This document shows, in pieces, positions 4,655 to 42,656 of a stretch of 64,000 bases of DNA. The DNA is from Planctomycetaceae bacterium (GTDB lineage: Bacteria; Planctomycetota; Planctomycetia; Planctomycetales; Planctomycetaceae). Below the pieces are notes generated by a model. The model ran no database searches and had not been told where the DNA came from. It saw only the letters and a list, made by a program, of their open reading frames with translations. Both the position numbers and the translations under genes were made by a program. The first letter of the stretch is position 1; every line of letters starts with the position of its first letter. The stretch covers positions 8,594 to 72,593 of the forward strand of contig JAEUII010000128.1 of NCBI GenBank assembly GCA_016795145.1, written 5' to 3'.

Positions 4655-5485
4655 TTACGGGATCACGAAGATGAACCCGGTCACTGCAGCAGCTTCCACG
4701 GCGACTGCCTTGACGGTAGGGCGAGGCATATAGGCGTTTGGTCCGAACGACGATCCCGTGGGGCAATCCTTCAGAGCACGCACCGTCTTGTGCGGATTGT
4801 CTGAAGCCATCATGTAGGGCAGCAACGGAATGCGCCCGGCAAAGTGAGCGATGCTGACAGCTTCGGTCAGGCATCCATAGGACTCACCACAACGTTCGAG
4901 ATTTGGATCCTCGAAGTAAAGTGGCTGATGTCGGAACGGAAACGAGTTTCGAGGCGGATGAGTCACATACCACGGAAGTGGAACGAACTGTTCCTCAACG
5001 CGCCGACCATCCAAAGAGACGACTGACTGCGGTGTCGCAAGAGGCTTTCCGTCTTCTGTCTTCGCAGACGTTGCATCAAACAGATTGACGGCCTGCAGAG
5101 ATCGAATGGCGACCGCGGATGAACGAGGCTCGTTCGCCTGAGCGGCCTCAACGGGTTGCGCTCCGTTTGGCTGTGCGCTATGCGGCTCGCCGGCGGATAC
5201 CTGCGATGCAGCCTGGTCGCCCGGCGCGGCAGCTTCGGGCATCGGCAGTACAGGAACCGTAGCCGATTCCGGCTGAGTCACGGGTTCCTGGTTCGCAGGA
5301 ACGGTCATGACGACCAGCAAAGTTTCTCCCTCAAACGCTTCATCGGCTGTCATCCGGGAGTAGTTCAAATGCAGGAACTCGGGCGGTTCAGAGTCGTCCG
5401 CATGGACAGCCGCACCGACGCTGCCAAGTAGGCCTGCGAGTGTGCAGACGAGCAGGGCTCGGATGGAGCCAAAGCGAACATCCAT
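4655..5485 (-). CDS. Hypothetical secreted protein
   Basis: The internal ATG at 5485 gives MDVRFGSIRALLVCTLAGLLGSVGAAVHA, a signal-peptide-like N-terminus. It contains a YFEDPNLERCGESYG...LLPY motif and a hydrophobic C-terminal tail. The upstream part of ORF 4655..5923 looks non-coding. Confidence 0.55.
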   Translation of the reverse strand: MDVRFGSIRALLVCTLAGLLGSVGAAVHADDSEPPEFLHLNYSRMTADEAFEGETLLVVMTVPANQEPVTQPESATVPVLPMPEAAAPGDQAASQVSAGEPHSAQPNGAQPVEAAQANEPRSSAVAIRSLQAVNLFDATSAKTEDGKPLATPQSVVSLDGRRVEEQFVPLPWYVTHPPRNSFPFRHQPLYFEDPNLERCGESYGCLTEAVSIAHFAGRIPLLPYMMASDNPHKTVRALKDCPTGSSFGPNAYMPRPTVKAVAVEAAAVTGFIFVIP

Positions 5486-5903
5486 GTTGCAATCCTGTTC
5501 AACAAGCCCGAAACCTGCGTCTGGCCGAATCCTTCCATGGATTCCTGCGAACCTCTGGTCCGGGGCGTCTGCCCAGACACGGGAGCCCCGAAACTCGACA
5601 GGCGCAGAGGACCCTGGTGAACTTTTCGGTATCGACGAACAGTGAAAGGGGGAATGAAACTCTGTGCTTTCCGTGGTGCAATCGTTACTTTTGGCAGGAC
5701 TCGTTCGTCTGTAATAATCGGGACAGATTGTCGCTATGAATCTGTTCAGTAAAGAAGAGGTCTGAGTCGGCGGACGAAGATCGACAGATGTCAGGGAAAA
5801 TACCGATTTTCCAGTAGCGGAACGCAGGTTGCGGAAGCATCCCGCCAGGGAAGTACGGGAAGGCAACTGATCGCGTCCACTGAACGAAGGTGCGGCACAA
5901 CTC

Positions 5904-8900
5904 ATGACGATACGCGCATTCATCCATCGCCTGCGTCGTTCATTTCAATTCTGGCTGGAGCAGCAACAGCGACACCGCGAACGCCGATTCCAGCCAGTCA
6001 GGCTGGAAGACCGTCGGCTGCCTGATGCCAGCTTTGCTCTGACAGGAACTGCTCTGGCCGTTGATAGTTTTGACGCGGGTGATTCGCTCCAGATTTCGTA
6101 CGATCCAGGCACCGGCCCTGGCACCGAGTCTTTTCAGTTGCAGTTGACCAGCGGAATCTGGGACGTCGCGGATCTTCCTGGTGGCCCCTTCGCACTGTCT
6201 CCGGATCTTCACACTCTGACCGTCGGGGCTTCATCGCTGAGTCAGCTGACCGTTGATGCCACCGGCAACGCGCTCGCCACAGTGACTCAGGGAACCGCGT
6301 TTGCCGCCGGGCAACTGACAATCCTGAGCGGTGGACAGGTTCAACTGAACGCCGCCGCAAACGACTTCGATCAGATCGCGGTCAACTCCGACTCGGCCGT
6401 TGTCTACGACGCAGATGACCTGTCGGTGACGCAACTTCAGACCACCGGCGATGCAACTCTGCATGCCGTCGGCGCACTCGACAACACCGCCGGCGCGCAG
6501 ATCGACGTTGGAGGACACGCGGAGTTTGAAGGAAGCCAGATCACACTGGGGACACACCTCGGGGATGTCGTTCAGTCGGCATCGCTCCAGTTTCATTCTG
6601 CAGGAACCGTCGAGATTCATGCAGATGCTGACGTCATGCTTTCGGGCAGCAGTGAAGCGAACTCACTTCTGCTGGAGTCTTCCGGCAGCATCACGAATGC
6701 AGCCGGTGCCACCATCGATGTGACCAATGAGGCAAACTTCCTGGCGACATCCGTGCGACTTGGCTTCGAAGTCGGTGATGACGTGAAGCTCGGGCAGTTC
6801 TCAGCCACGACAACCAGCGCTGCGGAATTGTCGGAAGACGACAGCACGACGTTCGGTGCTCAGGTCCATTCTGATTCACTGCATGTGATCAGCCAGGGCG
6901 AAATCACGAACTCGGCAGGCAGCAGCATTCATGTCACGAACAACGCAGACTTCGAAGGAAACTCACTGTCGCTCGGATTTCAGGCGGGTGACGACGTCGA
7001 GCTGGGATCACTCTCTGCAATCACAACCGGGGCCGCGGAACTTTCCGAAGATGACAGCACGCTCATCTCCGGAACACTGCAGTCCAGCACCTTGAAAGTG
7101 ATCAGCACGAGCGACATTACGAACGCCGACAACTCCAGTGTTTCTGTGACTGGACTCGCCGCGTTTGAAGGCAATTCTCTGACTCTTGGATTTGCCGCCG
7201 CAGACACAGTGAACCTTGGAAGCATTTCTTCAACGACGACGCTGGGAACAAGCCTCTCAGAAAACAGCGCAACGCTGATTGAAGGAACCCTTCAGGCTGC
7301 TGCAGTTAACCTGATCAGCGCAGGTGCCATTACGAATGCGGCAAATTCCAATGTCACCGTTACTGGAAATGCTGCGTTTGATGGCACGAACCTGAACCTC
7401 GGCTTTGCGAACAATGACACCATTCAGCTTGGTTCATTCTCGTCCAACACAACTGGAGCAACGGAACTGTCGGAAGACGACAGCACGCTCATCACAGGAA
7501 CAGTCCAGGCGGCTTCGCTCAACGTGGTGAGTACTGGCGCAATCACGAATGCAGCGGCTTCGACAGTGAGCGTGACTGGCAACGCGTCATTCAAAGGGAC
7601 AAGTCTCAGCCTCGGTTTTGCCAACAATGACACAGTGCAGCTTGGTTCATTCTCGTCAAACACAACCGGTGCGACCGATCTGTCTGAAGATGACAGCACA
7701 CTGATCTCCGGAACCGTCAGCGCTGCTTCTCTCACTATTGTCAGCGCCGGTTCGATCTCGGATGCGGCGAATGCAGCGGTCAGCATCACTGGTCATGCCG
7801 CGTTTGACGGAACCAGCCTGAATCTCGGCTTCGCCAACAATGACAGCGTCACACTGGGATCATTCTCTTCGACCACAACAGGAGCAACGAACCTGTCCGA
7901 GAATGACGGCTCGCTGATCTCAGGAACGGTGCAGGCCGCTTCATTGAATCTCATCAGCACGGGCACAATTTCGAACTCAGCAGCATCCACGGTCAGTGTT
8001 TCCGGCAACGCCTCATTCGACGGCACAAATATCAGCATCGGCGTTGCCAACAATGATGTCGTGACCCTGGGATCGTTTTCTGCCAATACGCCAGGAGCAG
8101 CATCGCTGTCGGAGGATGACAGCACATCCATCGAAGGTACGGTTCAGGCGGCGTCGCTCAACATTGTCAGCGCTGGTTCAATCACCAATGCGGCAACATC
8201 AACCGTCAACATCTCGGGCAATGCGTCGTTCAGTGGGACAAGTTTGAGCCTGGGTTTTGCAAATAATGATACTGTGCAGCTTGGTTCGCTTTCATCGAGC
8301 ACCACGGGCAGCACAGCGGTCTCCGAAGACAGCAGCACTCTGTTGGAAGGCATAGTGCAGGCCTCCACGCTGAATATTGTCAGCACAGGTTCAATCACGA
8401 ATGCCGCAAACTCAACAGTGAACATCGCCGGTAACGCCTCTTTCCGAGGAACAAGCCTGAACCTGGGATTTGCAAGTAATGACAGCGTCACGCTGGGGTC
8501 GTTTTCATCCAACACGACTGGTGCATCAGAACTCTTCGAGAATGATGGGACGTTGATTTCAGGAACCGTTCAGGCCGATTCACTGAAGATTGTCAGCGTT
8601 AGCGCCATTTCAAATGCCGCCAATTCAACGGTTAACGTCACGAACAACGCGTCGTTCAATGGCACCAGCTTGAATCTGGGTTTTGCGAACAACGATAACA
8701 TCCAACTTGGCTCGTTCTCCTCCACGACAACTGGTGCTGCAGCATTGTCAGAAAATGACAGCACTCTGATCGAAGGAACAGTCCAGGCCGCTTCACTGAA
8801 TCTCGTCAGCGCGGGCTCAATCACCAACGCAGCGAACGCGGGCATCAACGTCACGAATAACGCCTCGTTCAATGGCGCTAGTCTGAATCTGGGCTTTGCG

Positions 8901-11900
8901 AACAATGACAATGTGACGTTGGGCTCGTTCTCGTCCAGCACAGCCGGCGCGACAGCGTTGTCGGAAAACGACAGCACGCTGATCGAAGGAACCGTTCAGG
9001 CCGCTTCATTGAACCTGGTCAGCACCAGTTCAATGACCAACGCGGCAAACGCCATCGTCAACATCACGAGTAACGCTTCATTCACCGGCGCCAGCCTGAA
9101 CCTGGGATTTGCGAATAACGACAGCGTGACACTCGGATCTTTCTCATCCAACACGACCGGTGCGACAACGCTGTCAGAGAATGACAGCACGCTGATTGAA
9201 GGAACAGTTCAGGCAGCCTCGCTCAATATCGTCAGTGCTGGTTCGATCTCCAACGCTGCGAACTCCGGCGTCAACATCACCAACAATGCCTCGTTCAACG
9301 GCGCCAGTCTGGACCTCGGCTTTGCGAACAATGACAACGTGACGCTTGGCTCATTCTCGTCCAGCACAACCGGCGCGACAGCGCTGTCGGAAAATGACAG
9401 CACGCTGATCGAAGGGACCGTTCAGGCAGCCTCGCTGAACCTGGTCAGTACTGGCTCAATGACCAACGCGGCAAACTCCGTCGTCAATATTACTAACAAC
9501 GCGTCGTTCAATGGCGCGAGTTTGAACCTGGGGTTTGCGAATAATGACAACGTGACGCTGGGCTCTTTCTCCGCCACAACGACCGGAGCGACTGCACTTT
9601 CGGAGAACGACAGCACGCTGATCGAAGGAACGGTGCAGGCAGCCTCGCTGAATATCGTCAGCACCGGATCGATTACGAATGCAGCGAACTCCAGCGTGAG
9701 CGTCACCAACAACGCTTCCTTCAGTGGTGTCAGCCTGAACCTGGGCAACGCGAATAACGACAACATCCAGCTTGGTTCATTCTCGTCTAACACGACTGGA
9801 GCGACAGTGCTGTCGGAGAATGACAGCACGCTGATTGAAGGAACCGTTCAAGCCGCTTCGCTCAACATCGCCAGTTCGGGTTCCATCACAAACTCAGCGA
9901 ACTCCAGCGTCAGCATCACGAACAACGCTTCGTTCAACGGAACCAGTCTGAACCTGGGATTTGCGAACAACGACCAGGTGACGCTGGGATCGTTTTCATC
10001 TACGACAACCGGTGCAACAGCGCTGTCAGAAAACGACAACACTCTGATCGAAGGGACCGTTCAGGCGGCTTCGCTCAATATCGTCAGCACGGGATCGATC
10101 TCGAACGCAGCGAACTCAAACGTCAGCATCACCAACAACGCTTCGTTCAACGGAACCAGCCTGAACCTGGGATTTGCGAACAACGACCAGGTGACGCTGG
10201 GATCGTTTTCATCTACGACAACCGGTGCGACAGCGCTATCAGAAAATGACGGCACGCTGATCGAAGGAACAGTTCAGGCCGCATCACTGAATCTCGTCAG
10301 CACAGGTTCGATCTCGAACGCAGCGAACTCAAACGTCAGCATCACCAACAACGCTTCGTTCAACGGAACCAGCCTGAATCTGGGTTTTGCGAACAATGAC
10401 AACGTGACGCTTGGCTCTTTCACATCCACCACGACTGGTGCTGCGGAACTCTCAGAAAATGACAGCACACTGATCGAAGGAACCTTGCAGGCGGCTTCGC
10501 TGAATATCGTCAGCACTGGATCGATCTCGAACGCAGCAAGTTCAAGCGTCAGCATCACGAATAACGCCTCGTTCAACGGCACCAGCTTGAACCTGGGTTT
10601 TGCGAACAATGACAACGTGACGCTCGGCTCGTTTTCATCCAGCACGACTGGTGCGACGGCGTTGTCGGAGAATGACAGCACGCTCATCGAAGGGACCGTG
10701 CAGGCGGCTTCGCTGAACATGGTCAGCACCGGCTCCATTACCAATGCGGACAGCTCCAGCATTAACGTCACGAACAACGCTTCATTCGTTGGCACCAGTC
10801 TGAACCTGGGGTTTGCGAATAATGACAACGTCCAACTCGGTTCATTCTCCTCCAACACAACTGGTGCGACAGTGCTGTCAGAAAACAACAGCACGCTGAT
10901 CGAAGGAACCGTACAAGCCGCTTCGCTGAATCTCGTCAGCGCTGGATCGATCTCGAACGCAGCAAACTCAAACGTCAACATCACCAACAATGCCTCGTTC
11001 AACGGCACCAGTCTGAACCTTGGTTTCGCAAACAACGATAGCATCACTCTGGGATCGTTCTCCTCTAACACCACAGGTGCGACGGCGCTGTCCGAAAATG
11101 GAGATACGCTGTTAGACAGTCAGTTGCAGGCCGGCTCGGCTCTGATTCGTTCGACAGGAAACATCACCAATTCCCCGGGCCTGGCAGTCAACGTCACCGG
11201 GCTGCTGGACCTGTCCGCAAATACGATCACGCTGGGCAACAATCCTTCAGATTCCGTCACGATGGGGTCACTGCATTTTCAGTCGACCGGTGCCACAACG
11301 ATCACGGCCAACGGCATTGTGCTGGAATCCGGCAATCAGGCTCAAACGGTTCAGTTGAACTCTCTTTCCGGGATATCAGCTGTCTCATCGGCGTCAACCA
11401 CGATCACCGCGGACACGACAACCCTGGTCGCAACTAATGGAATCGGCACGGCATCTGTCAGAGTCGTCCTGGATACTGACCAGCTTCAAACACAAACCGG
11501 GGCGTCACAGTTTCTGCGCCTGACAGGTTCGACCACTCTGAATCTGCTGAAGTCGGATTCTGGATCAATCGACATCGTGGGAACGGACCTGATCGACGGA
11601 AATGGAACCAACGTCAATCTCGACGCAGCCATCGGATCGATTCAACTTCAACTGACAGGAGACGCGGGACAGGTTCCTGCTGATGTGTTCAAACCTGGAT
11701 TACTCGATGTGATCGAAACTCGCAGCCAGCAGCTGAGCTTCCAGACTCCTGGCGACATAGCGATCCGTGCTCTGCAGAATGTGAGCCTTGGGAACATCTC
11801 CGGCCGCAATATCTGGCTGACGGGTGACGGCAATCTCAATCTGTCATCAGCGAGTGTCACAGCAACAAATCTGGGACTGATCGCGGTCAACGGAGTAGTG

Positions 11901-14321
11901 ACGCTGTCGAACACACTGCAGGCTCAGCAGGACCTGACTGTCCAGACGCGAGATCTGTTGCCGACGAACGGAACATCAACGCTCGTCGCCGATCGGCTTC
12001 TTCTGAAGTCACAGAATTCTGCCACCGTACAAATCGATACTCGGCAGCTGGATGCCTCGTCGAACCAAAGCCTCACGTTGCTGAATCGACGTGCTTCTCT
12101 TGAACTTCAGGATCTCGACTGTGACCTGGTCGCCATCTCCACGCCAGGCGGATTCACGGAGCTTCGCAGTACCGGCTTGTTGCCTTCTTCGATCACTCAG
12201 GCACTGCCGATCACGGCTCAGCAGAATTCTCGCATCCTTGCGGACGGACTGCTGCTGACGGGCAATGCAGATGTTCTTCTTTCCAACTCAACGAATGACA
12301 TCAACACTCTGGCGTCGCAGCATTCAGGGCGACTGACTCTGGTTGACGTCGACGACCTGACGATTGGCACGGTGCGATCGACAGCAGGTGTTACTTCCGA
12401 TGATCACGATGTTCTGCTGGAAACAGGCGGTGCTCTGCAACTGACACAGGGAATCGATGCCGCAGACTCCGACATTCGCCTGCTCGTGACAGGTTCCATC
12501 CAGCAAACCGGTGGTTCGCTGATTGGCAATCATCTGGGAATTCATCAGCAGAAGACTCAGTCCAGCGACATCATTCTGAATTCCACAAACGATGTGAACA
12601 TCCTGGCAGTCCGCAATGACTCCCGAGGTGACATTCAGTTCAATGACACTGACGATCTGGTCATCGACAGTGTTTCGCGGCAGTCTCACGGGACAGTTCT
12701 GTTCGGTGGTGTGTCTGGCCTCACAAGCGCCGGAGGTGACATCATCGTTCAGGCCAACAATGATCTCACCATTCTGAAGTCTGTTGTCACGGGAGACGGC
12801 GTCGAAGACATAACATCAGCAACCGGGGAAACGATTCGATTGTCATCCGTCGATGGCAATCTCATTGTCGATGCGACGGCAGGAGCCATCGTGATCTCGA
12901 CGGACGAAAACCTTCTTCAGTCCAATGCTGAGACCGGCGACCGGATTCAACTGATTGCCGACTCGAATGGCTCTTACAACGGAGACCTCGACGGCGATTC
13001 GATTGGCGACGAACTCGATCCTGACATGGACGGCGACACGATCCCGAACGATCTCGACGGCACAGCCGACGGGGCCGTTGAAGGACGGATCACTCTGACC
13101 GGTGATGTGACTCTGCGCAGTGATGGAGGCGTGGCGCATCGCTTTGGTCCTCGCCCGTCTGTCGGTCAGCTCAATACGGCGTTCTTTGAGTTCATCACGG
13201 ATCCGCTTCCGCTGGCACTTGATAACAGCAACGCTGCGTGGAACAACGCGAATGCTTACATCGATGCGTTCTATGCGGTGATTGGTGCGTCGGGTGAGGA
13301 GAATCTTCTCGTGTCGCTCGACTGGCAGGATCCTGTCAGTGAACATCGAGTACTCACTGACGCGCTGACTCAGCAGATTGCCCAGAACCTGGGTGTGACA
13401 AGCCCGGTATCATCGGATCGTATCCAGCAGTATCTGGTGGAACAGGGTGGCCTTCGAAACATGATTGGTCACCTTTACACATCATTGGATATGACGCTGT
13501 TCCAGACTCAGCTTCGACAGACAACGATCCATGTGGAGCTGAGCGTTTCGCAGCATCCATCGCTTGCAGTCACGGGTTCCTGGATTGAACAGACGGGAAC
13601 AACTCAGGCTGTGCCGGGGAGAGACGTTGCGTCTTCCGACAATGCACTGACGGGTCCGAACGTGTTCGAAAACGGGCATGCCCAGTTTCGTATTCCGACC
13701 GTGACCCCAGCTCCTCCAGCGCTGTTCAGTGGGGCACCAGTACAACAGTTTGAGCGGCTTGTGGTGCCGGCCCCGCCGGAGGTTCAGGTGACGCCGGATC
13801 CACCAGTCTCTGCGGAACTGGGTGGCGGAGCAGTCTCGGGTTCTGCATTCTCAACGGACGTGTTCTTCCAGATTCGTCGGCAGTTTGAAGCCGACCAGCC
13901 GGCGGAAGTCGTGATCGAGCGACTCACGAACAGTCGTCTCATTTCTTCCAGAGAAGCTCTGGAAAAGTTCATTGCGCAAAACCCGGAACTCCAGGACGGT
14001 GCCGGCTATGAAATCTGGCTGATCTCCGAAACAGGCGGACGCAAGGTGGAACGTCCAATTGTGGAATTCGAAATCACGGGCGGCCATCCGGGACCAGCTC
14101 GTGAACAGTCGTCAGATTCCGAGGGACAGATGCAGCTCATTGATCTGCCGTTCGAACTTCCAAAAGAACCAGACTCGCCACCACCCAACAACAATGCGGT
14201 GCCGGGAAATGAAACGCCTCAGGCGGCAGTGGATCCGGAACATCTTCTGGACATCATTCAGGCAGGCGTGGCTCAGTTACAGATGTTGGCAGGAACAGTC
14301 GGTGCAGAGGTGACACGATGA
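5904..14321 (+). CDS. Giant (2805 aa) repeat-rich surface or adhesin-like protein
   Basis: The N-terminus is basic with RLEDRRLPDASF. About 22 tandem 71-aa N/S/T/G/A-rich units follow, with no Cys. A D-rich DLDGDSIGDELDPDMDGDTIPNDLDG motif (thrombospondin type-3-like, calcium-binding style) lies near 12981-13075. The C-terminal 500 aa are unique. Confidence 0.85.
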   Translation: MTIRAFIHRLRRSFQFWLEQQQRHRERRFQPVRLEDRRLPDASFALTGTALAVDSFDAGDSLQISYDPGTGPGTESFQLQLTSGIWDVADLPGGPFALSPDLHTLTVGASSLSQLTVDATGNALATVTQGTAFAAGQLTILSGGQVQLNAAANDFDQIAVNSDSAVVYDADDLSVTQLQTTGDATLHAVGALDNTAGAQIDVGGHAEFEGSQITLGTHLGDVVQSASLQFHSAGTVEIHADADVMLSGSSEANSLLLESSGSITNAAGATIDVTNEANFLATSVRLGFEVGDDVKLGQFSATTTSAAELSEDDSTTFGAQVHSDSLHVISQGEITNSAGSSIHVTNNADFEGNSLSLGFQAGDDVELGSLSAITTGAAELSEDDSTLISGTLQSSTLKVISTSDITNADNSSVSVTGLAAFEGNSLTLGFAAADTVNLGSISSTTTLGTSLSENSATLIEGTLQAAAVNLISAGAITNAANSNVTVTGNAAFDGTNLNLGFANNDTIQLGSFSSNTTGATELSEDDSTLITGTVQAASLNVVSTGAITNAAASTVSVTGNASFKGTSLSLGFANNDTVQLGSFSSNTTGATDLSEDDSTLISGTVSAASLTIVSAGSISDAANAAVSITGHAAFDGTSLNLGFANNDSVTLGSFSSTTTGATNLSENDGSLISGTVQAASLNLISTGTISNSAASTVSVSGNASFDGTNISIGVANNDVVTLGSFSANTPGAASLSEDDSTSIEGTVQAASLNIVSAGSITNAATSTVNISGNASFSGTSLSLGFANNDTVQLGSLSSSTTGSTAVSEDSSTLLEGIVQASTLNIVSTGSITNAANSTVNIAGNASFRGTSLNLGFASNDSVTLGSFSSNTTGASELFENDGTLISGTVQADSLKIVSVSAISNAANSTVNVTNNASFNGTSLNLGFANNDNIQLGSFSSTTTGAAALSENDSTLIEGTVQAASLNLVSAGSITNAANAGINVTNNASFNGASLNLGFANNDNVTLGSFSSSTAGATALSENDSTLIEGTVQAASLNLVSTSSMTNAANAIVNITSNASFTGASLNLGFANNDSVTLGSFSSNTTGATTLSENDSTLIEGTVQAASLNIVSAGSISNAANSGVNITNNASFNGASLDLGFANNDNVTLGSFSSSTTGATALSENDSTLIEGTVQAASLNLVSTGSMTNAANSVVNITNNASFNGASLNLGFANNDNVTLGSFSATTTGATALSENDSTLIEGTVQAASLNIVSTGSITNAANSSVSVTNNASFSGVSLNLGNANNDNIQLGSFSSNTTGATVLSENDSTLIEGTVQAASLNIASSGSITNSANSSVSITNNASFNGTSLNLGFANNDQVTLGSFSSTTTGATALSENDNTLIEGTVQAASLNIVSTGSISNAANSNVSITNNASFNGTSLNLGFANNDQVTLGSFSSTTTGATALSENDGTLIEGTVQAASLNLVSTGSISNAANSNVSITNNASFNGTSLNLGFANNDNVTLGSFTSTTTGAAELSENDSTLIEGTLQAASLNIVSTGSISNAASSSVSITNNASFNGTSLNLGFANNDNVTLGSFSSSTTGATALSENDSTLIEGTVQAASLNMVSTGSITNADSSSINVTNNASFVGTSLNLGFANNDNVQLGSFSSNTTGATVLSENNSTLIEGTVQAASLNLVSAGSISNAANSNVNITNNASFNGTSLNLGFANNDSITLGSFSSNTTGATALSENGDTLLDSQLQAGSALIRSTGNITNSPGLAVNVTGLLDLSANTITLGNNPSDSVTMGSLHFQSTGATTITANGIVLESGNQAQTVQLNSLSGISAVSSASTTITADTTTLVATNGIGTASVRVVLDTDQLQTQTGASQFLRLTGSTTLNLLKSDSGSIDIVGTDLIDGNGTNVNLDAAIGSIQLQLTGDAGQVPADVFKPGLLDVIETRSQQLSFQTPGDIAIRALQNVSLGNISGRNIWLTGDGNLNLSSASVTATNLGLIAVNGVVTLSNTLQAQQDLTVQTRDLLPTNGTSTLVADRLLLKSQNSATVQIDTRQLDASSNQSLTLLNRRASLELQDLDCDLVAISTPGGFTELRSTGLLPSSITQALPITAQQNSRILADGLLLTGNADVLLSNSTNDINTLASQHSGRLTLVDVDDLTIGTVRSTAGVTSDDHDVLLETGGALQLTQGIDAADSDIRLLVTGSIQQTGGSLIGNHLGIHQQKTQSSDIILNSTNDVNILAVRNDSRGDIQFNDTDDLVIDSVSRQSHGTVLFGGVSGLTSAGGDIIVQANNDLTILKSVVTGDGVEDITSATGETIRLSSVDGNLIVDATAGAIVISTDENLLQSNAETGDRIQLIADSNGSYNGDLDGDSIGDELDPDMDGDTIPNDLDGTADGAVEGRITLTGDVTLRSDGGVAHRFGPRPSVGQLNTAFFEFITDPLPLALDNSNAAWNNANAYIDAFYAVIGASGEENLLVSLDWQDPVSEHRVLTDALTQQIAQNLGVTSPVSSDRIQQYLVEQGGLRNMIGHLYTSLDMTLFQTQLRQTTIHVELSVSQHPSLAVTGSWIEQTGTTQAVPGRDVASSDNALTGPNVFENGHAQFRIPTVTPAPPALFSGAPVQQFERLVVPAPPEVQVTPDPPVSAELGGGAVSGSAFSTDVFFQIRRQFEADQPAEVVIERLTNSRLISSREALEKFIAQNPELQDGAGYEIWLISETGGRKVERPIVEFEITGGHPGPAREQSSDSEGQMQLIDLPFELPKEPDSPPPNNNAVPGNETPQAAVDPEHLLDIIQAGVAQLQMLAGTVGAEVTR
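6576..11292 (+). repeat. In-frame tandem array of 213-bp (71-aa) units, about 22 copies
   Basis: The consensus unit is GTVQAASLNIVSTGSITNAANSNVSITNNASFNGTSLNLGFANNDNVTLGSFSSTTTGATALSENDSTLIE. Antisense ORF starts recur at 8996, 9209, 9422, 9848, 10061 and 10274, all multiples of 213 bp apart. Confidence 0.95.
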
Positions 14322-17300
14322 CAAAGAAGTCCACTGGATCGTCCGATGAAAATAACCAGCCAGATCTGGACAAGACATTTGTCGGGCCCATGAATTCACA
14401 TGGGAGCAGCGACCAGGAATCGCAGGCCGACTCAGCGCCTTCGGCAGCCGACCAGACGTTCGTGCCGTCGCGGCCAGCATCCGACAGTTCGGACGATCTG
14501 GACGACTCCGACGAACAGCCGGGCAGTTCCAATATCGACACTACCTTTGTACCACCAGCAAGGGACATGGACGATCAGTCTGAGGCGACCATCGTTCCTG
14601 TTCGTCGAACGCCGGCATCAGGAATTGACGCAACGATCATTCCTCCATCGCCTGCTGAGAAGGATGAAGCAGACCTTCAGGCCAATTCAACCTTCGTGAT
14701 GCCAAAGTCGGCGCTGCCTCAGTCCGATGACGAAGACGCCGAAGTCACTCAGGTTCGTCCTCGCACTCCACCACGCGAAGAGCCTGCAGCCTCTGGCGAA
14801 GAACTCAACGCCGATGCGACGGCCGTGTTCTCCAGATCCATTGGGAATCGTCCGCCGGAGGATGATGACAGTGAAGGGGAAACTCTGGAACGAGGTCCGC
14901 AGTCACCAAAGACTCGAGCCAATATCCAGGGCCGTACGATTAGCCCCAAGGGTCCAGGCGCAGGCTCACAGATCTGGAATGCAGCTTCAAAAGGAGGACT
15001 TGAAAACTCAATCTCACTTCGAAAACGCGCGGTCTCCGGCAGCGGCGCAGGGCCCTTCATTCCGACGGACGACGCCGACTTCGAAGTCGTCCAGAAGCTG
15101 GCCGAAGGCGGAATGGGTGTTGTCTATGTGGCTCGCCAGAAATCGTTGAACCGCGAACTTGCGATCAAGACACTGAAAGTTCAGGGGCGTTCGGGACAGG
15201 GAACTCGAGGGCAGGGTGCGCCTTCACAGCTGACAAGGGCCGAGCGTCAGAAGCGCGAGATGTTCCTTTCGGAAGCTCTCGTGACCGCGAACCTGGTTCA
15301 CCCGAACATCATCCCGATCCATGAACTCGCGGAAACCAACGACGGCGTTCCCTATTATGTGATGAAGCGAGTCCATGGCATTCCGTGGAACAAGCGCATT
15401 CGTGAAATGTCGCTGGCACAGAATCTGGATGTGCTCCACAAAGTCTGTGACGCGATGGCGTATGCTCATCATCACGGCGTCATCAATCGCGACCTGAAAC
15501 CCGAGAATATTATGCTCGGGGAGTTCGGAGAAGTTCTGGTGCTCGACTGGGGACTCGCCGTCCCCGCGCCTCATGCCGTCGACAAGAACTTTCGCTCGCC
15601 GGCGGCATCCTTCGGAGCAGGCACGCCGGCTTACATGGCTCCGGAACTATGGACGGGGCCGGAAACTGCTATCGGTGAAGCGTCCGACATTTATCTGCTT
15701 GGCGCGATCCTCTTTGAGATCATGACGCACCTGCCGCCGCACGAGTTTCCCTCGATGCCTGCTCGCGGCACGAACATCGACATGATGAAAGTGATCGATG
15801 GGGTTCTGAGAGACAACCGAATTCGTTCAACAACTGAGTCCGGAGAATTGATGGATATCGCTATGAAGGCGATGCGGACCGATCCGGATAAACGATTTGG
15901 CAGTGTGCTGGAGTTTCAGTTTGCTGTTCGAAATTTTCAGCGGCATGAGGAAAGCCGACGACTCAGCAATCGCGCTGGCGAACTGCTCGACAGTAAAGAC
16001 GCAGCGAGGGAATATCATACCTACCAGACCGCCGCGGCACTGTTTGAGGAATCTCTGCGTACGTGGAAGAACAATGGTCCCGCGCGCAACGGCCTCCGCA
16101 CGACTCGTCTTCGCTACGCAGAACTTGCCAGCAGCAAAGGCGACTATGACCTCGGTCTTCAGATTGCCTCCCAGGAATCCGACAATGAGTTTCTTGCTCT
16201 GCAGCGGCGGCTTGTCACCGCAAGGCGCTTACGAGCCAGCGTGAAGTGGGCAGCCGTCGCAGCGATGGTCTGCGTCATTCTTCTGGGTGTGAAATCCATC
16301 TACGACAACGGCATCATCACAAACCTGAATGCGGAGGTGGAAAGTCGCCAGAAGGAAGCGGCAGACCTGATCGCAAAAGCCGAAACAGCGCGTGAAACTG
16401 CCGTGGCGGCAGAACGCGAAGCGGGGATTGCGACAGAAGCCGCTGATGCCGCGCGGAAGCAGGCAGACATGGCGATCGCCGATGCCGACTCGGCCAAGAA
16501 AACGGCCGAACAGGCGAGTAAAGAGGCGGCTCAGTCAGCAGCTCTTGCCGCCACAGAAAAGAAGAACGCCGAGGCGGCTCAGAAGATGGCCGCCGATGCA
16601 ACTCAACAGGCCGATGCGGCGCGCAAAGAAGCCATGACGGCAAAAGCCGAAGTGGCGGCGGCGACAGTTCAGGTGGCCATGGCGAAAGAACAACTGGCAG
16701 ACGCGGAAGAAAAAACGAAAGTGGCGGTCCAGCAGCAGCAACAGGCGGAGACCGCGGCCAAAGTCGCTCAGGTGGAGATTCAATCGCAGTCAATCCGAGG
16801 TCTGACGCTCAGCGAAAACTACTCCGATGCACTTCGCGAGGTAGATCGTTTGCTGGAGGGCAACCTTCTTCAACAGTTGCCGGAAGAAGTTCAACGCCAG
16901 AGACGCGCGGAGCTGGAAGCACAGCGAGATCAGCTTCTTCGCAGAACGAAGCAGTCTGATTCCCCCATTCAGTCGCAGGTGGTCAGTCCTGATGGTTCGA
17001 TCCTGGTCACAGGCGATCGCGATGGTCGCGTCGAGGTTCTTGCGAATCCCGCGGCACAGATGCAGTGGCCGAAAGACGCTGCCAGAAAACACCAGTTTGC
17101 GTCTGAAATCCTTCGGATGAAGTTTAGTGACAATCAGCGTCTCTTCATTGCGGTCGGCAATGACATTCATCTGTGGGATCTGAGCAACGGTGAGCCACGC
17201 AAGGTCTGTTCGCATTCCGAAAAGGTCTGCGGTCTTGACGTGGATTCGCGCTTCCTGATCTCAGGTGATTCTTCCGGACTCATTCTGGTCCATGATGCTC

Positions 17301-20300
17301 AAACGCTGCAACCTGTCAGTCGACTGGCGGCACTGACTCGCCTTCAGGACATTGCGATCGTCCCGGATTCAAGCGAATTCATTTACGCCGGCTCGCGCGG
17401 TGGACAGTCGGCGGACATCCTTGCCTATCGACTTCCTGAACAGGGTTCACAAGACTCCAGACCAAAGCGACTTGGACAGCTTCGACTCAGTCGTGATCAG
17501 AATGAACCACCCGCAGCGCTCGCCATTTCTCCGAATGGACAGTTTCTGACGATCAGCAACCAAACGAATGGCGAAGTCTGGGTGCTGCCACGATCGAAAG
17601 ATCCGGAGTCATCCGGGTTCCCATTTCAGCATCCGGCTGACCTTGAGCAATCAGGACAAAAGGGCTGGAAGCTGACTCGACACTTAAGACCTGTGAACGA
17701 TCTTCGCTGGTCGTCCGACAGTCTGCACCTGCTGACAGCGTCAGATGATCGTTCGATCGGTCTCTGGGATCGCCGCGAGACTGGCCAGTTGCAGCTTCGC
17801 GGTTTGATCCGTGGCCATGGGGCTCGAGTTTTGCAGTGCCTGTTTCTGAATGCGGATGCAACTCGCATCGCTTCCAGCAGCGCGGATCTTCAAAGTCGCC
17901 TGTGGGATCTGAAGACACTGGAATCTGATACGAAGCAGCTTCGCAAGGCGTTTCACCTTTCGAAGTGCGATTCGGCGGAGTCGCAGATTCGCCAGCGTGC
18001 ACTCGCGAGTTATGTTCCTGTGGCTCTGTTTCGCAACCCGCCGGAGGGTACTCCAGAGGCAGAGCAGGGCGGCGAGCCCTCCGAAGAGGATCCGATTGTT
18101 CGCCTGCCGGATGCCCCGTCGGACAGCAGAAAATCCATCACGGCCGCGGAGTCAAAAGTCCTGGAGACAATCTCCACGGCGGGACCAGTCCGAGCACTGC
18201 GCTTCGATTCGAAGGGCGGCCGACTGCTTGGCGGAACTTCCGACGGAACGCTGATCCTCTGGAACACCGAATCCGGTGAACGACTCCTCTCCGCTTCCGG
18301 CCAGGAAACGCTGCGAGAAGGCCACGAGTTTCATATTGCTCAGATGGCCGTGGCAGGAGCCGATCACAATGTTCTGATCACCGCGGGATACGATGGTACT
18401 CTTCGCCTTTGGGACTTAAGCGCTTCCGGGCGGACGGGAATTCAAAAGCAGGTTCTGAGCGGCATTGGACTGGTGAATGCGTTTGCTGCGTCCGCCGATG
18501 GCAGATGGCTGGCAACGACAGTTTCAACGGCCAGAAACGTGCAGCCAGACGGCAGCGAAAAATCCAGCGATGAACAGTTTGGTTGTCAGCTTTGGAACAT
18601 CGAGAATCTGCTGAAGCAGGAACGTCCTCAGCCTCATGCAAATCTGGGTGGCGTTCATAAGTCTGAACTCACATCGCTGTCGTTTTCTCCAAATGGTCAG
18701 TACCTCGCCACGGGAGGCCGTGACGGAGTTCTGGCCATCTGGGATCTCGCAACGAATCAGCTTCTGACTCAGACACGAGCACATCGCAGGAACACGATCA
18801 TCAGCTCACTCAACTGGCTCGACGATCAGCACATCGTGTCGGCCGGGATGGATGGTCAGTTGCTGACCTGGGCTCTCACAACGTCAGCCAAAGAAAATTC
18901 CTCCACAGAGCTGACTCGTCAATCATCCATGGAACGCGATCAAACGCCGATCGAACGAGTTTCTGTTTCGCCCGATCGTACTCAGATGCTGGTGATCTCG
19001 GTCGATACCGACAGAAAAACGCGGCAGACGAAATCGACTGTGGAACTTCGAAGCACCAAAGACGGCAGTGTCCGGCAGCCTCTGATTCTTGCGAACGTCG
19101 AAGGCCGCGCGCCGACTCAGATCTCGGCGGCGCAATGGTCTCTGAATGGACAGCAGGTGCTGTTGGCCACGAACGTTGGGATTCAGGAAGTTCGATCGCC
19201 GGAATGGAAAGTCGTTCGAGTCTTCAGTGCGGGGTCGGGTGTTTCAGACGCCCAGTTTGTCCCTCACACCGGAGATGCAAAACCTCAGGAGCAGGATTCC
19301 AACATTCTGACATTCGACGGGAACACGGCCCGACTGTGGAACAATCAGAGTCGGAAACAGATCGCTTCCTTCCGAGGCCCGTTTCCAATTCGAGATGTTG
19401 CACTCACCAGTGGCGAATCGCCTCTTGCTGTCAGCGCTGGACTGACACTTCGCATTTTTGATGGAACGATGACCGCGGGGCAGGGCGGTAAGCCTTTGTT
19501 TCGACTACCGGAAGAACAGGGCGTTGAGGTGACATGTCTGGCTCCCGATGAACAGACGTCGTCGCGACTGGCCTTCGCGGATTCTACAGGAGTCATCCGT
19601 CTGGGGCAGTGGGATCAGGCCACAAACACATTGATGATTCGATGGAGTTTCAAGGCTGTTGAATCGCCTGTCGTCGCACTTCGCTGGACGCCTCAGCATG
19701 ATCAACTGGCCGTTGTTTCGATACTGGGAGAAGTCGTTCTGCTGAATACCGATGGCGTCGCCACTGCTCGCACAACGATTCCCGACAACCAGTCGTATCG
19801 CATTTCCAGCGCGGATATCGACAGCACCGGACGAATGCTCTCTCTCGCCGGCGAGCGAGTTTCCACGTCGGAATCCATCGGCTGGATCCTGAGCGATCTG
19901 ATTGCGGACCACACTGAACAGAACGTTGTGAATGAGCCGATCGCCGCGAAGCCAGCAAACATCGTCTGTCAGTTCTCAGGCCACAGCGCGGGTGGAATCA
20001 CGGCCGTGCGATTCATCCCTTCGTCGCCGTACTTGATCTCCGGCGGACACGACGGAGCCATCATCATCTGGAACTGGCAAAACCCACTCCCCGGCGCGGT
20101 GCCGTCAGCGTACGAAGCCTTTCGGTTCCTGTCACAGACACTACCCTCCGCCCACGCCGCTCCCGTCACATCGCTGGATGTTTCATCATCGCATCTCGCC
20201 AGCGCGGGTGAAGATGGCAAAGTGATTCTCTGGAACCTGCCCGAGTCCATTACCGCCGTTCGCGCCGCCGCCGCGGACATCGGACAGGAAATGAGTGACG

Positions 20301-20308
20301 GAAAATAA
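14318..20308 (+). CDS. Ser/Thr protein kinase with a disordered N-terminus, single TM, coiled coil and WD40 repeats (1996 aa)
   Basis: The Hanks kinase motifs are GGMGVVYVA, AIKTLK, NRDLKPEN, DWG and AYMAPE (nt about 15080-15940). A TM segment KWAAVAAMVCVILLGV lies near 16244-16303. An A/E/K-rich coiled coil spans about 16320-16790. Many WD40-type blades are present (SGDSSGLILVHD, TASDDRSIGLWD, TAGYDGTLRLWD, SGGHDGAIIIWN). The ATG overlaps the upstream stop codon as ATGA. Confidence 0.9.
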   Translation: MTKKSTGSSDENNQPDLDKTFVGPMNSHGSSDQESQADSAPSAADQTFVPSRPASDSSDDLDDSDEQPGSSNIDTTFVPPARDMDDQSEATIVPVRRTPASGIDATIIPPSPAEKDEADLQANSTFVMPKSALPQSDDEDAEVTQVRPRTPPREEPAASGEELNADATAVFSRSIGNRPPEDDDSEGETLERGPQSPKTRANIQGRTISPKGPGAGSQIWNAASKGGLENSISLRKRAVSGSGAGPFIPTDDADFEVVQKLAEGGMGVVYVARQKSLNRELAIKTLKVQGRSGQGTRGQGAPSQLTRAERQKREMFLSEALVTANLVHPNIIPIHELAETNDGVPYYVMKRVHGIPWNKRIREMSLAQNLDVLHKVCDAMAYAHHHGVINRDLKPENIMLGEFGEVLVLDWGLAVPAPHAVDKNFRSPAASFGAGTPAYMAPELWTGPETAIGEASDIYLLGAILFEIMTHLPPHEFPSMPARGTNIDMMKVIDGVLRDNRIRSTTESGELMDIAMKAMRTDPDKRFGSVLEFQFAVRNFQRHEESRRLSNRAGELLDSKDAAREYHTYQTAAALFEESLRTWKNNGPARNGLRTTRLRYAELASSKGDYDLGLQIASQESDNEFLALQRRLVTARRLRASVKWAAVAAMVCVILLGVKSIYDNGIITNLNAEVESRQKEAADLIAKAETARETAVAAEREAGIATEAADAARKQADMAIADADSAKKTAEQASKEAAQSAALAATEKKNAEAAQKMAADATQQADAARKEAMTAKAEVAAATVQVAMAKEQLADAEEKTKVAVQQQQQAETAAKVAQVEIQSQSIRGLTLSENYSDALREVDRLLEGNLLQQLPEEVQRQRRAELEAQRDQLLRRTKQSDSPIQSQVVSPDGSILVTGDRDGRVEVLANPAAQMQWPKDAARKHQFASEILRMKFSDNQRLFIAVGNDIHLWDLSNGEPRKVCSHSEKVCGLDVDSRFLISGDSSGLILVHDAQTLQPVSRLAALTRLQDIAIVPDSSEFIYAGSRGGQSADILAYRLPEQGSQDSRPKRLGQLRLSRDQNEPPAALAISPNGQFLTISNQTNGEVWVLPRSKDPESSGFPFQHPADLEQSGQKGWKLTRHLRPVNDLRWSSDSLHLLTASDDRSIGLWDRRETGQLQLRGLIRGHGARVLQCLFLNADATRIASSSADLQSRLWDLKTLESDTKQLRKAFHLSKCDSAESQIRQRALASYVPVALFRNPPEGTPEAEQGGEPSEEDPIVRLPDAPSDSRKSITAAESKVLETISTAGPVRALRFDSKGGRLLGGTSDGTLILWNTESGERLLSASGQETLREGHEFHIAQMAVAGADHNVLITAGYDGTLRLWDLSASGRTGIQKQVLSGIGLVNAFAASADGRWLATTVSTARNVQPDGSEKSSDEQFGCQLWNIENLLKQERPQPHANLGGVHKSELTSLSFSPNGQYLATGGRDGVLAIWDLATNQLLTQTRAHRRNTIISSLNWLDDQHIVSAGMDGQLLTWALTTSAKENSSTELTRQSSMERDQTPIERVSVSPDRTQMLVISVDTDRKTRQTKSTVELRSTKDGSVRQPLILANVEGRAPTQISAAQWSLNGQQVLLATNVGIQEVRSPEWKVVRVFSAGSGVSDAQFVPHTGDAKPQEQDSNILTFDGNTARLWNNQSRKQIASFRGPFPIRDVALTSGESPLAVSAGLTLRIFDGTMTAGQGGKPLFRLPEEQGVEVTCLAPDEQTSSRLAFADSTGVIRLGQWDQATNTLMIRWSFKAVESPVVALRWTPQHDQLAVVSILGEVVLLNTDGVATARTTIPDNQSYRISSADIDSTGRMLSLAGERVSTSESIGWILSDLIADHTEQNVVNEPIAAKPANIVCQFSGHSAGGITAVRFIPSSPYLISGGHDGAIIIWNWQNPLPGAVPSAYEAFRFLSQTLPSAHAAPVTSLDVSSSHLASAGEDGKVILWNLPESITAVRAAAADIGQEMSDGK

Positions 20309-20337
20309 TCGCCGACCCGTTCCGTCGGCCCCGGGCA

Positions 20338-20790
20338 CATTTGTAACGCCGGAAAGGCAGATTGCGCCACGCGGCAGAAAAACGCCTGGTTCGCAGAGCG
20401 AACCGCGACTTAGTCGTTGTTCGCTCCGCCGAACAGAACGCCCGTCACACGGTCAACGTTTCCAGAGATCTCTCGCGAGTCAAACGCTACGCCAAAACTG
20501 AGGCGCTGTTAACTCCGCCGAACAGTCCGCATTTGTAACGCCGGAAAGGCAGATTGCGCCACGCGGTAGAAAACGCCTGGTTCGCGGAGCGAACCGCGAC
20601 TTAGTCGTTGTTCGCTCCGCCGAACAGAACGCCCGGCACACGCTCAACGTTTCCAGAGATCTCTCGCGAGTCAAACGCTACGCCAAAACTGAGGCGCTGT
20701 TAACTCCGCCGAACAGTACGCATTTGTAATGCCGGAAAGGCAGATTGCGCCACGCGGCAGAAAAACGCCTGGTTCGACGGAGCGAACCGC
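20338..20790. repeat. Tandem repeat, 191-192 bp unit, about 2.4 copies, between convergent gene ends
   Basis: catttgtaaYgccggaaaggcagattgcgccacgcgg recurs at 20338, 20530 and 20721. Each unit holds three hairpins built on gttcg-N5/6-cgaac. Partial inverted copies lie at 30408-30450 and 42514-42652. Confidence 0.9.
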
Positions 20791-20792
20791 GA

Positions 20793-42147: not shown

Positions 42148-42513
42148 GAGCTATGCTCCTCCCGGAGAAAGACGGTCAAATGAAGGGTGTCTGGAAATCC
42201 GCACGCAAGACTCCGGATTTCGCAGGATTCCTCGGATTATAGGAGCCCCCATCTGAACTGCAACGAGCCGCAAATCCTCTCTTTCCTCCGAGAGTTTCCG
42301 CGCCGCTCCGGGAACTCACGCAACCGTTCTGCGTGTTTCATCCGCTAAGAAGTGATCGAATTGACTCCCTGGCGTACCCGTTTTCGCTCGTATCCTGTCG
42401 ACGATCCCAACCCGCTGCGTCAGCGAGGGATCACCGTGGGGACCTGCATTCGTTGGATCCCTCACTGACGTTTCGGTTTACGAAGTGTCAGCAAGTGAAT
42501 GCCTGCCAGTCCA

Positions 42514-42652
42514 AAGTCGCGGTTCGCTCCGTCGAACCGAGCGTTTATCTACCGCGTGGCGCAGTGTGCCTTATCGGTGTTGCAAAGCTGCGCGGGGCTG
42601 TGTGCTGGTCGGAGTGCTTGGGGCGTTCTGTTCGACGGAGCGAACAACGACT
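42514..42652. repeat. Inverted, shortened copy of the 191-bp unit, directly downstream of the lysA stop
   Basis: aagtcgcggttcgctccgtcgaaccgagcgtttatctaccgcgtggcgca and ggggcgttctgttcgacggagcgaacaacgactc match the reverse complement of the 20338-20790 unit. Confidence 0.8.
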
Positions 42653-42656
42653 CTGG

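Follow-up and report, generated by a model that had tools for sequence, protein, structure and literature searches.

Giant genes are numerous in planctomycetes, which also have an expanded complement of membrane-bound serine/threonine (Ser/Thr) kinases with WD40 arrays, and to our knowledge neither a ligand nor a partner is known for any of these planctomycete kinases. The subject of the present analysis is a pair of adjacent genes within a 64,000-nucleotide (nt) stretch of DNA from a Planctomycetaceae bacterium (hereafter the window, meaning the whole stretch that was analysed): an open reading frame for a giant repeat protein (5904..14321, + strand, ATG start, 2805 amino acids (aa)) and, directly after it, one for a kinase with a single predicted transmembrane (TM) helix and a long WD40 array (14318..20308, + strand, ATG start, 1996 aa). 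Comparison of related loci shows the two genes to be a conserved, specific and, judging from their junctions, often translationally coupled pair, frequently joined by a third gene, and a functional linkage of giant and kinase is strongly supported by this comparative record.

TM Ser/Thr kinases with C-terminal WD40 or TPR arrays, the WD40 arrays being predicted to be periplasmic, have been published as a class of the Planctomycetota (Genome Biol Evol 2024, PMC11032199; also Mahajan et al. 2021, PMC8567305), so that the architecture of the kinase is not new in itself, a point missing from an earlier note on this stretch of DNA. With its Pkinase domain, single TM helix and long C-terminal WD40 array, the window kinase is a member of this class, whereas the sub-family of about 2000 aa to which it belongs adds a conserved upstream giant, a presumed helical stalk of 170-280 aa and an acidic N-terminus with T-F/I-V motifs. 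The neighbours and operons of the WD40 kinases are not mentioned in PMC11032199. The giant, for its part, is to be compared with the planctomycete proteins bearing the motif RRLxxExLExRxLLA, which was proposed as an export signal, specific to planctomycetes, for giant proteins and proteins of the cell surface, according to the account of Studholme et al. 2004 given in PMC8567305. Eight of the ten longest proteins of Tuwongella immobilis carry this motif (Mahajan et al. 2021, PMC8567305), and 20 of the 52 motif proteins of this organism were detected, eight of those only in the sodium dodecyl sulfate (SDS)-soluble fraction, which also yielded membrane kinases (PMC8567305). The window giant is alike in the motif near a basic N-terminus lacking a hydrophobic h-region, in its large size and in its extracellular-type composition, while its family adds a unique 340-aa C-terminal module, a usually anchor-like tail and an obligatory kinase neighbour, and reads LPDA in the window in place of LLxA.

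Other bacterial systems offer partial parallels. In the LapA/LapD/LapG system of Pseudomonas fluorescens, the fate of a giant repeat adhesin depends on a neighbouring signalling protein of the inner membrane whose periplasmic domain serves output or input. Here, the giant, the kinase and those neighbouring genes that were examined showed no RTX or type I secretion feature, no LapG-type protease and no cyclic di-GMP (c-di-GMP) domain, and the signaller is a Hanks-type WD40 kinase. Two-partner secretion (FhaB/FhaC, TpsA/TpsB) likewise sets a giant, probably beta-helical exoprotein beside a dedicated partner gene, and to this likeness may be added a match of the window giant to the filamentous-haemagglutinin 20-aa repeat (fil_hemag_20aa) that is sub-threshold, at 15.1 bits against a cut-off of 18. 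However, the giant has no two-partner secretion domain according to Pfam and NCBIfam, its partner is a kinase and not an Omp85 protein, and both the gene order and the N-terminal signal differ. Bitopic Hanks-type kinases with an extracytoplasmic sensor domain are represented by PpkA of the PpkA-Fha1-PppA pathway, which belongs to the type VI secretion system (T6SS), and by the PASTA kinases (PknB/StkP). The window kinase shares this bitopic architecture, and FHA genes lie beside the kinase in three related loci, but in contrast to PpkA no vWA domain was found in it (Pfam), its sensor would be a stalked WD40 array and its conserved partner is the giant. In contrast to the PASTA kinases, it reaches 152.9 bits against a cut-off of 450 with NCBIfam NF033483 (PknB_PASTA), over the kinase domain only, and has no PASTA match in Pfam.

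Literature searches with LEDRRLL, DUF5649, PLYFE and the combination of planctomycete giant gene and kinase returned no description of a giant-kinase pair or of a three-gene cassette, in agreement with the earlier note, whose author knew of no described system of such composition. Each component is of a known kind, and it is the conserved giant-kinase cassette itself that is undescribed in the literature found.

Conserved pairing of the giant and kinase genes

The two window genes meet in the sequence gacacgATGAcaaag, where the ATG of the kinase (14318-14320) and the TGA of the giant (14319-14321) share four nt, so that the ATGA overlap at 14318..14321 (+) is present as the earlier note had described it. 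A purine-rich Shine-Dalgarno-like element, GAGGTG, lies 6 nt 5' of the kinase ATG. Position 14318 is the earliest start codon possible in the kinase frame; the CGATGAC junction is kept in the two closest relatives (loci L006 and L007), and the first TFV motif of the kinase, which lies 5' of the next methionine (Met25), is conserved in both with synonymous third-position changes, from which the start at 14318 is taken to be real. A later start at Met25 was ruled out by the same coding-type motif upstream of it. The earlier note had also drawn attention to the lack of a terminator or repeat element at this junction, in a window where such elements were said to fill most other junctions; the first half is correct but trivially so, because no intergenic DNA exists there, and the second holds in part, several intergenic repeats being present in the window. 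A 4-nt ATGA overlap is the commonest type of operon junction and is unremarkable alone, and the weight of the finding therefore rests on comparative data.

A profile of the C-terminal region of the giant was scanned over one genome per species, 185,579 species in all, and yielded 37 loci, all of them in planctomycete metagenome-assembled genomes (MAGs), a few of which are misnamed. Those of L006, L015, L017 and L018 bear Chitinophaga or Candidatus Kuenenia in their record titles, probably through taxonomic mislabelling or contamination of the bin. A same-strand kinase gene was found directly 3' of the giant in 34 of the 36 informative loci of the scan and in all six of the loci that were added by way of kinase or giant relatives (L003, L043, L044, L045, L047 and L048), bringing to 40 of 42 the informative loci in which a Pkinase-TM-WD40 gene follows a relative of the C-terminal module on the same strand. 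When junction lengths were computed with the first ATG as the kinase start, 15 of 34 junctions proved to overlap (by 4 nt in six, by 8 nt in seven and otherwise in two), 18 showed gaps of 1-135 nt and one was apparently frameshifted. Adjacency and overlap of orthologues across genera, which the earlier note had put forward as the test of its proposal, thus hold clearly, and its reading of the pair as a two-gene unit in which a surface fibre may be monitored or anchored by the kinase is supported in part.

Word-indexed protein searches with the C-terminal profile retrieved only five and then 13 short fragments, and exhaustive HMMER searching was needed to size the family. The latter gave 262 cluster representatives with the module at E <= 1e-3 and 171 at E <= 1e-10, the module lying at the C-terminal end in nearly all of the full-length proteins listed, which reach up to 7711 aa. 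Two distant members from this search (L047 and L048) were both looked up, and a Pkinase-WD40 gene follows in each.

The same pairing was recovered from the side of the kinase. Genomic contexts were inspected for nine kinase relatives, and the upstream proteins were compared with the window giant by BLAST; a giant lies directly upstream in seven of the nine, which amounts to all seven relatives with at least 30% identity to the window kinase. The upstream neighbour is a 3378-aa giant with a 4-nt overlap in P0003 (74% identity), a 4437-aa giant at a gap of 135 nt in P0008 (48%), a 1090-aa protein at a gap of 101 nt in P0061 from Fuerstiella marisgermanici (36-37%), a 6828-aa giant with a 4-nt overlap in P0076 (35%), large proteins cut by the contig end at gaps of about 200 nt in P0083 and P0084 (31-32%), and a 2255-aa giant with a 4-nt overlap in P0085 (30%); P0088 and P0116 (28-29%) have no giant upstream and are unpaired. 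The upstream proteins share the C-terminal region of the window giant, and its N-terminal 280 aa too wherever these are visible. In L006 and L007, the C-terminal modules of the giants are about 85% and the kinases 74% identical to those of the window. Full-length relatives of the kinase number about 100, with lengths of 1,560-2,640 aa (most of them about 1,900-2,250); the window kinase itself had no exact counterpart among the public assemblies, and its closest relative is P0001 at 99% identity. This family of about 2000 aa occurs in Planctomycetaceae-type genomes and MAGs, including Fuerstiella marisgermanici.

Two MAGs each hold two diverged pairs, L007 and L047 in STL-PLA45 and L036 and L042 in ABC1.50, so that giant and kinase duplicate and diverge as a unit. 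Across the loci compared, no conserved gene was found downstream of the kinase, and hence the cassette ends there; a conserved gene 3' of the kinase as an extra member was ruled out on this ground.

Adjacency of this kind could also arise if the two genes were joined only for shared regulation, for example in a cell-surface programme, or for inheritance as a block, with the WD40 region sensing some other periplasmic or surface ligand. WD40 receptor kinases are indeed numerous in the Planctomycetota and most have no giant neighbour (PMC11032199), P0088 and P0116 being unpaired in our own comparison, and two giants (L031 and L035) occur without the kinase. Yet the adjacency holds although the downstream flank is unconserved and down to kinases of 27% identity, and it survives both within-genome duplication and a 6-fold change in the length of the giant. 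Stop/start overlaps, moreover, recur in separate lineages, and tight order and coupling are usual for subunits or cognate partners. Co-expression without contact is accordingly among the less likely explanations, and we regard it as improbable.

The third gene, which is missing from the earlier note, stands divergently upstream of the giant. In the window, this small gene ('upp'; 4655..5485, - strand) encodes a protein of 276 aa that starts MDVRFGSIRALLVCTLAGLLG, which is signal-peptide-like, and that has a conserved C-terminal HQPLYFEDPNLERCG...LPY region of the PLYFE(D/E)xNLERCG type and a hydrophobic extreme C-terminus. In 11 of the 15 loci with this region visible, the most distant ones included, a homologue is encoded immediately upstream of the giant on the other strand (the window, L006, L007, L036, L038, L039, L041, L003, L045, L047 and L048). 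No match for the small PLYFE-motif protein was found in Pfam, in NCBIfam or among PDB sequences. A SecA gene (5246-6967, -) adjoins the small gene of the distant triad in L048, which may be a coincidence.

The giant protein and its conserved ends

The conserved N-terminal region of the giant (aa 1-280; 5904..6743, +) has a basic N-terminus and carries the motif RFQPVRLEDRRLPDA at aa 28-42, within which RLEDRRL occupies aa 33-39 (window 6000-6020). The window giant reads RRFQPVRLEDRRLPDA at aa 27-42 (RLEDRRLPDA), whereas its orthologues read R[LF][RQ]V[VM]RLEDRRLLDA, with LL where the window has LP. By alignment and BLAST, motif and region are conserved in all 12 visible giant N-termini, that of the window included. 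As in the planctomycete export-motif proteins, the motif of the window giant lies close to the N-terminus after a basic stretch. The earlier note had linked RLEDRRL to the N-termini of exported planctomycete giants, in agreement with the published motif RRLxxExLExRxLLA (PMC8567305).

In the repeat core (6699..11231, +), 21 units stand in tandem (aa 266-1776), each exactly 71 aa long and with a mutual identity of about 74%; the autocorrelation peaks at a lag of 71, the units align on a common anchor and TRF reports periods of 213 and 426 nt. It is rich in Asn, Ser and Thr and all-beta in character (N+S+T 44%, K+R 0.5%). The whole giant has 34% N+S+T, 0.4% Lys, one Cys and an isoelectric point (pI) of 4.05, a composition that fits what is typical of extracellular beta-fibres. 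Segments of the window repeats match DUF5649 (PF18886) at 24.9 and 22.8 bits, below the Pfam gathering threshold of 25, while the orthologue of Fuerstiella marisgermanici scores 32.3; searches of Pfam, NCBIfam and PDB sequences with the N-terminus and the repeats gave no significant match. In the translation, the core is followed by a non-periodic beta-rich region (aa 1777-2393; 11232..13082, +), which is partly kept in the closer orthologues and absent from Fuerstiella-type giants, and which includes an Asp-rich stretch resembling thrombospondin-type-3 calcium-binding sequences (aa 2343-2387; 12930-13064, +; weak MtsC/TSP3-like match in NCBIfam).

The module that defines the family (aa 2394-2735; 13083..14108, +) is about 340 aa long, has two predicted folded sub-domains and ends, in the alignments, in a near-invariant DGAGYEIWL...PIVEFEITGG motif; it has no match in Pfam, in NCBIfam or among PDB sequences. 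Across protein lengths of 1090-6828 aa, the giants retain both the N-terminal 280 and the C-terminal 340 aa, the middle varying freely, and by this comparison the family is defined by its conserved N- and C-terminal modules and not by its repeats.

Beyond the module, the window giant closes with an acidic Pro-rich tail and the stop codon (14109..14321, +), ending ...PEHLLDIIQAGVAQLQMLAGTVGAEVTR. The tail elements were surveyed over L002-L004, L008-L044, L045, L047 and L048. Almost every orthologous giant closes with a hydrophobic patch of 14-20 aa that is rich in Ala and Gly, then ARW[RK]RRQ or RFRKRQ and, about 15 aa further on, a basic [ST]R.AR..R[RK] motif, all within the last 60 or so aa; patch and basic motifs together resemble a membrane anchor followed by a cytoplasmic tail. 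The patch and the Arg-rich tail are both missing only in the window, L006 and L007, while L016 lacks the patch only. In the giants of the former three, the end is formed by a conserved amphipathic segment of the LLDIIQAGVAQLQMLAG type, and the window lineage has lost the anchor and tail of the giant. That the tail universally carries a phospho-acceptor Ser/Thr was ruled out, since this residue is not conserved in all lineages (L032-L034 have RR[VA]ARV).

The tail is central to the main rival of the explanation favoured below, namely control from the inside out, whereby the kinase would govern the export, anchoring or release of the giant from the cytoplasmic side, by phosphorylation or binding of either the basic tail of the giant or the export machinery, and the WD40 array would be a periplasmic assembly scaffold, in a manner loosely analogous to the control of LapA by LapD. 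The ARW[RK]RRQ/RFRKRQ and [ST]R.AR..R[RK] motifs that come after the patch in nearly all orthologues would then face the cytoplasm beside the kinase domain, the acidic N-terminus of the kinase (pI 4.3) could bind the basic tail, and translational coupling would provide matched amounts of the two proteins. However, the window giant and its two closest relatives are without the tail and nevertheless have an ATGA-coupled kinase, so that inside-out control fits most orthologues but the window lineage less well, the tail having been lost there. In addition, the Ser/Thr of the tail motif is not universal, as L032-L034 illustrate, and the conserved parts of the cassette include no protease and no c-di-GMP or secretion component. 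We consider inside-out control to be rather unlikely on balance.

The kinase and its predicted topology

The kinase opens with an acidic, disordered-looking region of pI 4.3 (aa 1-254; 14318..15079, +) containing six acidic-x-T-[FI]-[VI]-P/G motifs. Three to seven similar copies are present in most orthologues and two or none in a few, with DTWVPP variants in Fuerstiella, and these T-[FI]-[VI] motifs could be phospho-acceptor or docking sites. In the Ser/Thr kinase catalytic domain (aa 255-528; 15080..15901, +; Pfam Pkinase PF00069, E = 9.7e-32), the motifs EGGMGVV, LAIK, NRDLKPEN, DWG and APE are conserved over the 29 related kinases compared with few exceptions, which consist of DFG or DYG for DWG in two kinases and the lack of a LAIK-type match in the unpaired outgroup L005. 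That the protein is a pseudokinase was ruled out, all catalytic motifs being kept.

A single TM helix is predicted by hydropathy at aa 640-661 (ASVKWAAVAAMVCVILLGV; 16235..16300, +), preceded by the Arg-rich juxtamembrane sequence QRRLVTARRLR. It is the sole strong hydrophobic stretch after the catalytic domain (KD19 2.13), its flanks carry charges of +5 on the N-terminal and -1 on the C-terminal side, and every kinase orthologue has a homologous hydrophobic segment whose N-terminal flank is basic, which bears out the one TM helix that the earlier note had placed after the catalytic domain. There follows a presumed alpha-helical stalk (aa 662-895; 16301..17002, +; A/E/K/Q/R 58%, P+G 3%), about 240 aa long in the window and 168-277 aa long with a similar composition in the paired orthologues. 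What had been called a coiled coil is better taken as an Ala/Glu/Lys/Gln-rich, presumably helical segment, in which the occupancy of heptad a/d positions by large hydrophobic residues is low (0.20). The remaining 1100 or so residues form the WD40 beta-propeller array (aa 896-1996 and stop; 17003..20308, +), as was claimed before: Pfam WD40 (PF00400) matches with E = 2.6e-54, and more than 40 propeller families in Pfam match over roughly aa 1000-1996, the region being long enough for about three propellers. The placement of the WD40 side outside the cytoplasm, likewise claimed before, is in line with the N-in/C-out orientation that the positive-inside rule predicts for all orthologues and with the predictions published for the class (PMC11032199).

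If, on the other hand, the N-terminal motif of the giant were not an export signal and the hydrophobic segment of the kinase were non-spanning or reversed, both proteins would be cytoplasmic and the giant would be an intracellular scaffold bound by the WD40 array. WD40 domains are classically cytoplasmic, the giant is without a hydrophobic signal sequence, and the export role of its motif is only a proposal (PMC8567305). All kinase orthologues, however, keep the hydrophobic segment with its Arg-rich N-flank, the composition of the giant would be extreme for a cytoplasmic protein (pI 4.05, 0.4% Lys, 44% N/S/T in the repeats) and the orthologous giants bear the anchor-like segment at their C-terminus. 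The detection of eight of the 20 T. immobilis motif proteins solely in the SDS-soluble fraction, together with membrane kinases, argues in the same direction (PMC8567305). A fully cytoplasmic pair is thus also among the less likely explanations and appears to us highly improbable.

Flanking genes and a proposed function

FHA-domain genes adjoin the paired kinase only in L004/L042, L043 and L044 (L004 16253-17194; L043 9644-19595; L044 9728-19560), and the T6SS genes for Hcp and VgrG lie near the FHA gene only in L043 and L044. Through these neighbours, some lineages may have a connection to the control of threonine phosphorylation. A tblastn search of the window with the FHA and Hcp proteins of L043 and two of its unannotated neighbours found nothing, VgrG and PP2C phosphatases not having been searched for; membership of a T6SS/PpkA system was ruled out, the FHA/T6SS context being confined to a few distant loci and none of it having been found in the window.

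As regards the limits of the transcription unit, a sigma-70-like promoter candidate (TTGGCA-16-AATAAT, TG extended; 5691..5718, +) lies in the 418-nt divergent intergenic region 5' of the giant; it was the best match of a consensus scan (10/12), a match that does not imply function. The GC-rich hairpin GCCGAC-CCGTTCC-GTCGGC (20311..20329, +), which begins 2 nt past the kinase stop, is a possible end of the unit and is not a canonical intrinsic terminator, because the + strand has no T-run. The gap past the kinase then contains a 191-bp unit repeated 2.4 times in tandem with 96% identity (20338-20794); each unit holds a hairpin GGTTCGC...GCGAACC, and pieces of the unit are found again near 30403 and at 42510-42663. 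Beyond this repeat element come menaquinone-type radical-SAM and UbiA genes. Dispersed intergenic repeat families with 84-90% identity were also seen at 27027-27154/28265-28392, 30494-30701/31928-32135 and 31727-31775/58159-58207, and the sole Rfam match in the window is an Acido-Lenti-1 small RNA (RF01687; 183-228, +; 41.9 bits, gathering score 37). Another large multidomain Ser/Thr kinase, 1487 aa long, is encoded at 49465-53928 (+); its Pkinase domain spans aa 81-293, and ankyrin repeats occupy about aa 1020-1300. In L001, a relative with 74% identity, the region 3' of the kinase holds two tandem genes of about 620 aa (16122-19860) in place of the repeat element and the radical-SAM and UbiA genes of the window; both have weak MMR_HSR1 matches and one also a faint Dynamin_N match, and they are possibly dynamin-like GTPases.

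The explanation that we favour, and to which we would give an even chance, is that giant and kinase are the central members of an envelope cassette conserved among planctomycetes, in which the WD40 propellers dock the C-terminal module of the giant and the state of the fibre is relayed to the kinase. The giant would be an acidic, Asn/Ser/Thr-rich beta-type fibre or adhesin, exported by means of the planctomycete-specific N-terminal RLEDRRL-type signal, with its length set by the freely varying count of 71-aa repeats and its 340-aa C-terminal module nearest to the cytoplasmic membrane. In most lineages it would be tethered by the C-terminal hydrophobic segment and the basic cytoplasmic tail, a tether that the window lineage would have lost. 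The partner would be a catalytically active Ser/Thr kinase of the receptor type, with an intracellular N-terminus and a helical stalk of about 35 nm holding some three WD40 propellers in the periplasm. Docking of the propellers onto the C-terminal module would make a cognate pair, produced in fixed proportion through translational coupling, and the occupancy of the fibre, its load or the binding of a ligand would be relayed to the cytoplasmic kinase. The latter would signal by phosphorylating its targets, perhaps including the T-F/I-V repeats of its own acidic N-terminus, which might recruit FHA-type partners.

Several observations weigh against this explanation. The giant L031, which is followed by a sulfatase gene, and L035 have no downstream kinase. 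Hydropathy finds no TM helix, no hydrophobic h-region and no classical signal peptide in the window giant, and the export role of the RLEDRRL-type motif is itself a proposal of the literature (PMC8567305). The topology of the kinase, and with it the periplasmic position of stalk and propellers, is deduced from hydropathy and the positive-inside rule. An AlphaFold2 (AF2) model of five repeats, built on a pseudo-alignment of the window's own repeats, was unusable (predicted local distance difference test (pLDDT) 35), so that the beta-helix or solenoid fibre is deduced from sequence periodicity. For the C-terminal module, AF2 with 15 sequences gave a mean pLDDT of 53, which is low confidence; two sub-domains reach about 70-80, a beta-sandwich-like part and a small alpha/beta part bearing the DGAGYEIWL...PIVEFEITGG motif, and Foldseek against the PDB returned only generic Ig-like/beta-sandwich hits (E >= 0.007, TM-score < 0.2), which are uninformative. 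With anchor and tail missing, the window pair may work somewhat differently from the family norm. Direct contact between WD40 array and giant, like the direction of the signal, is something that we infer, and the co-divergence of the two genes is no proof of physical contact, because adjacent genes share their history anyway.

A further-reaching version of the favoured explanation, which we put forward tentatively and hold to be possible at most, is that of an adhesion-receptor system in which the tunable giant fibre would serve as antenna or lever, its membrane-proximal module would be read by the WD40 propellers and the signal would pass from outside to inside, in function comparable to the integrins or adhesion receptors of eukaryotes. 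The cognate pairs would diversify by within-genome duplication, and the PLYFE-motif protein would be an assembly or export factor. Should this be true, a ligand or partner would for the first time be identified for a bacterial WD40 receptor kinase, and a family of planctomycete giant genes would receive its first defined function.

The present comparison defines three unannotated families, namely the C-terminal module of the giant, its anchor and tail, and the small PLYFE-motif protein. That the pair remains coupled across deep divergence, duplication and a 6-fold change in the length of the giant leads to one hypothesis, that the C-terminal module of the giant is the partner of the kinase, and this is testable in the cultured Fuerstiella marisgermanici NH11, where a compact giant of 1090 aa lies beside the kinase on CP017641.1, at about 4,968,660-4,978,342. 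From such sequence comparisons, the cassette offers the bacterial WD40 receptor kinase class its first candidate partner.

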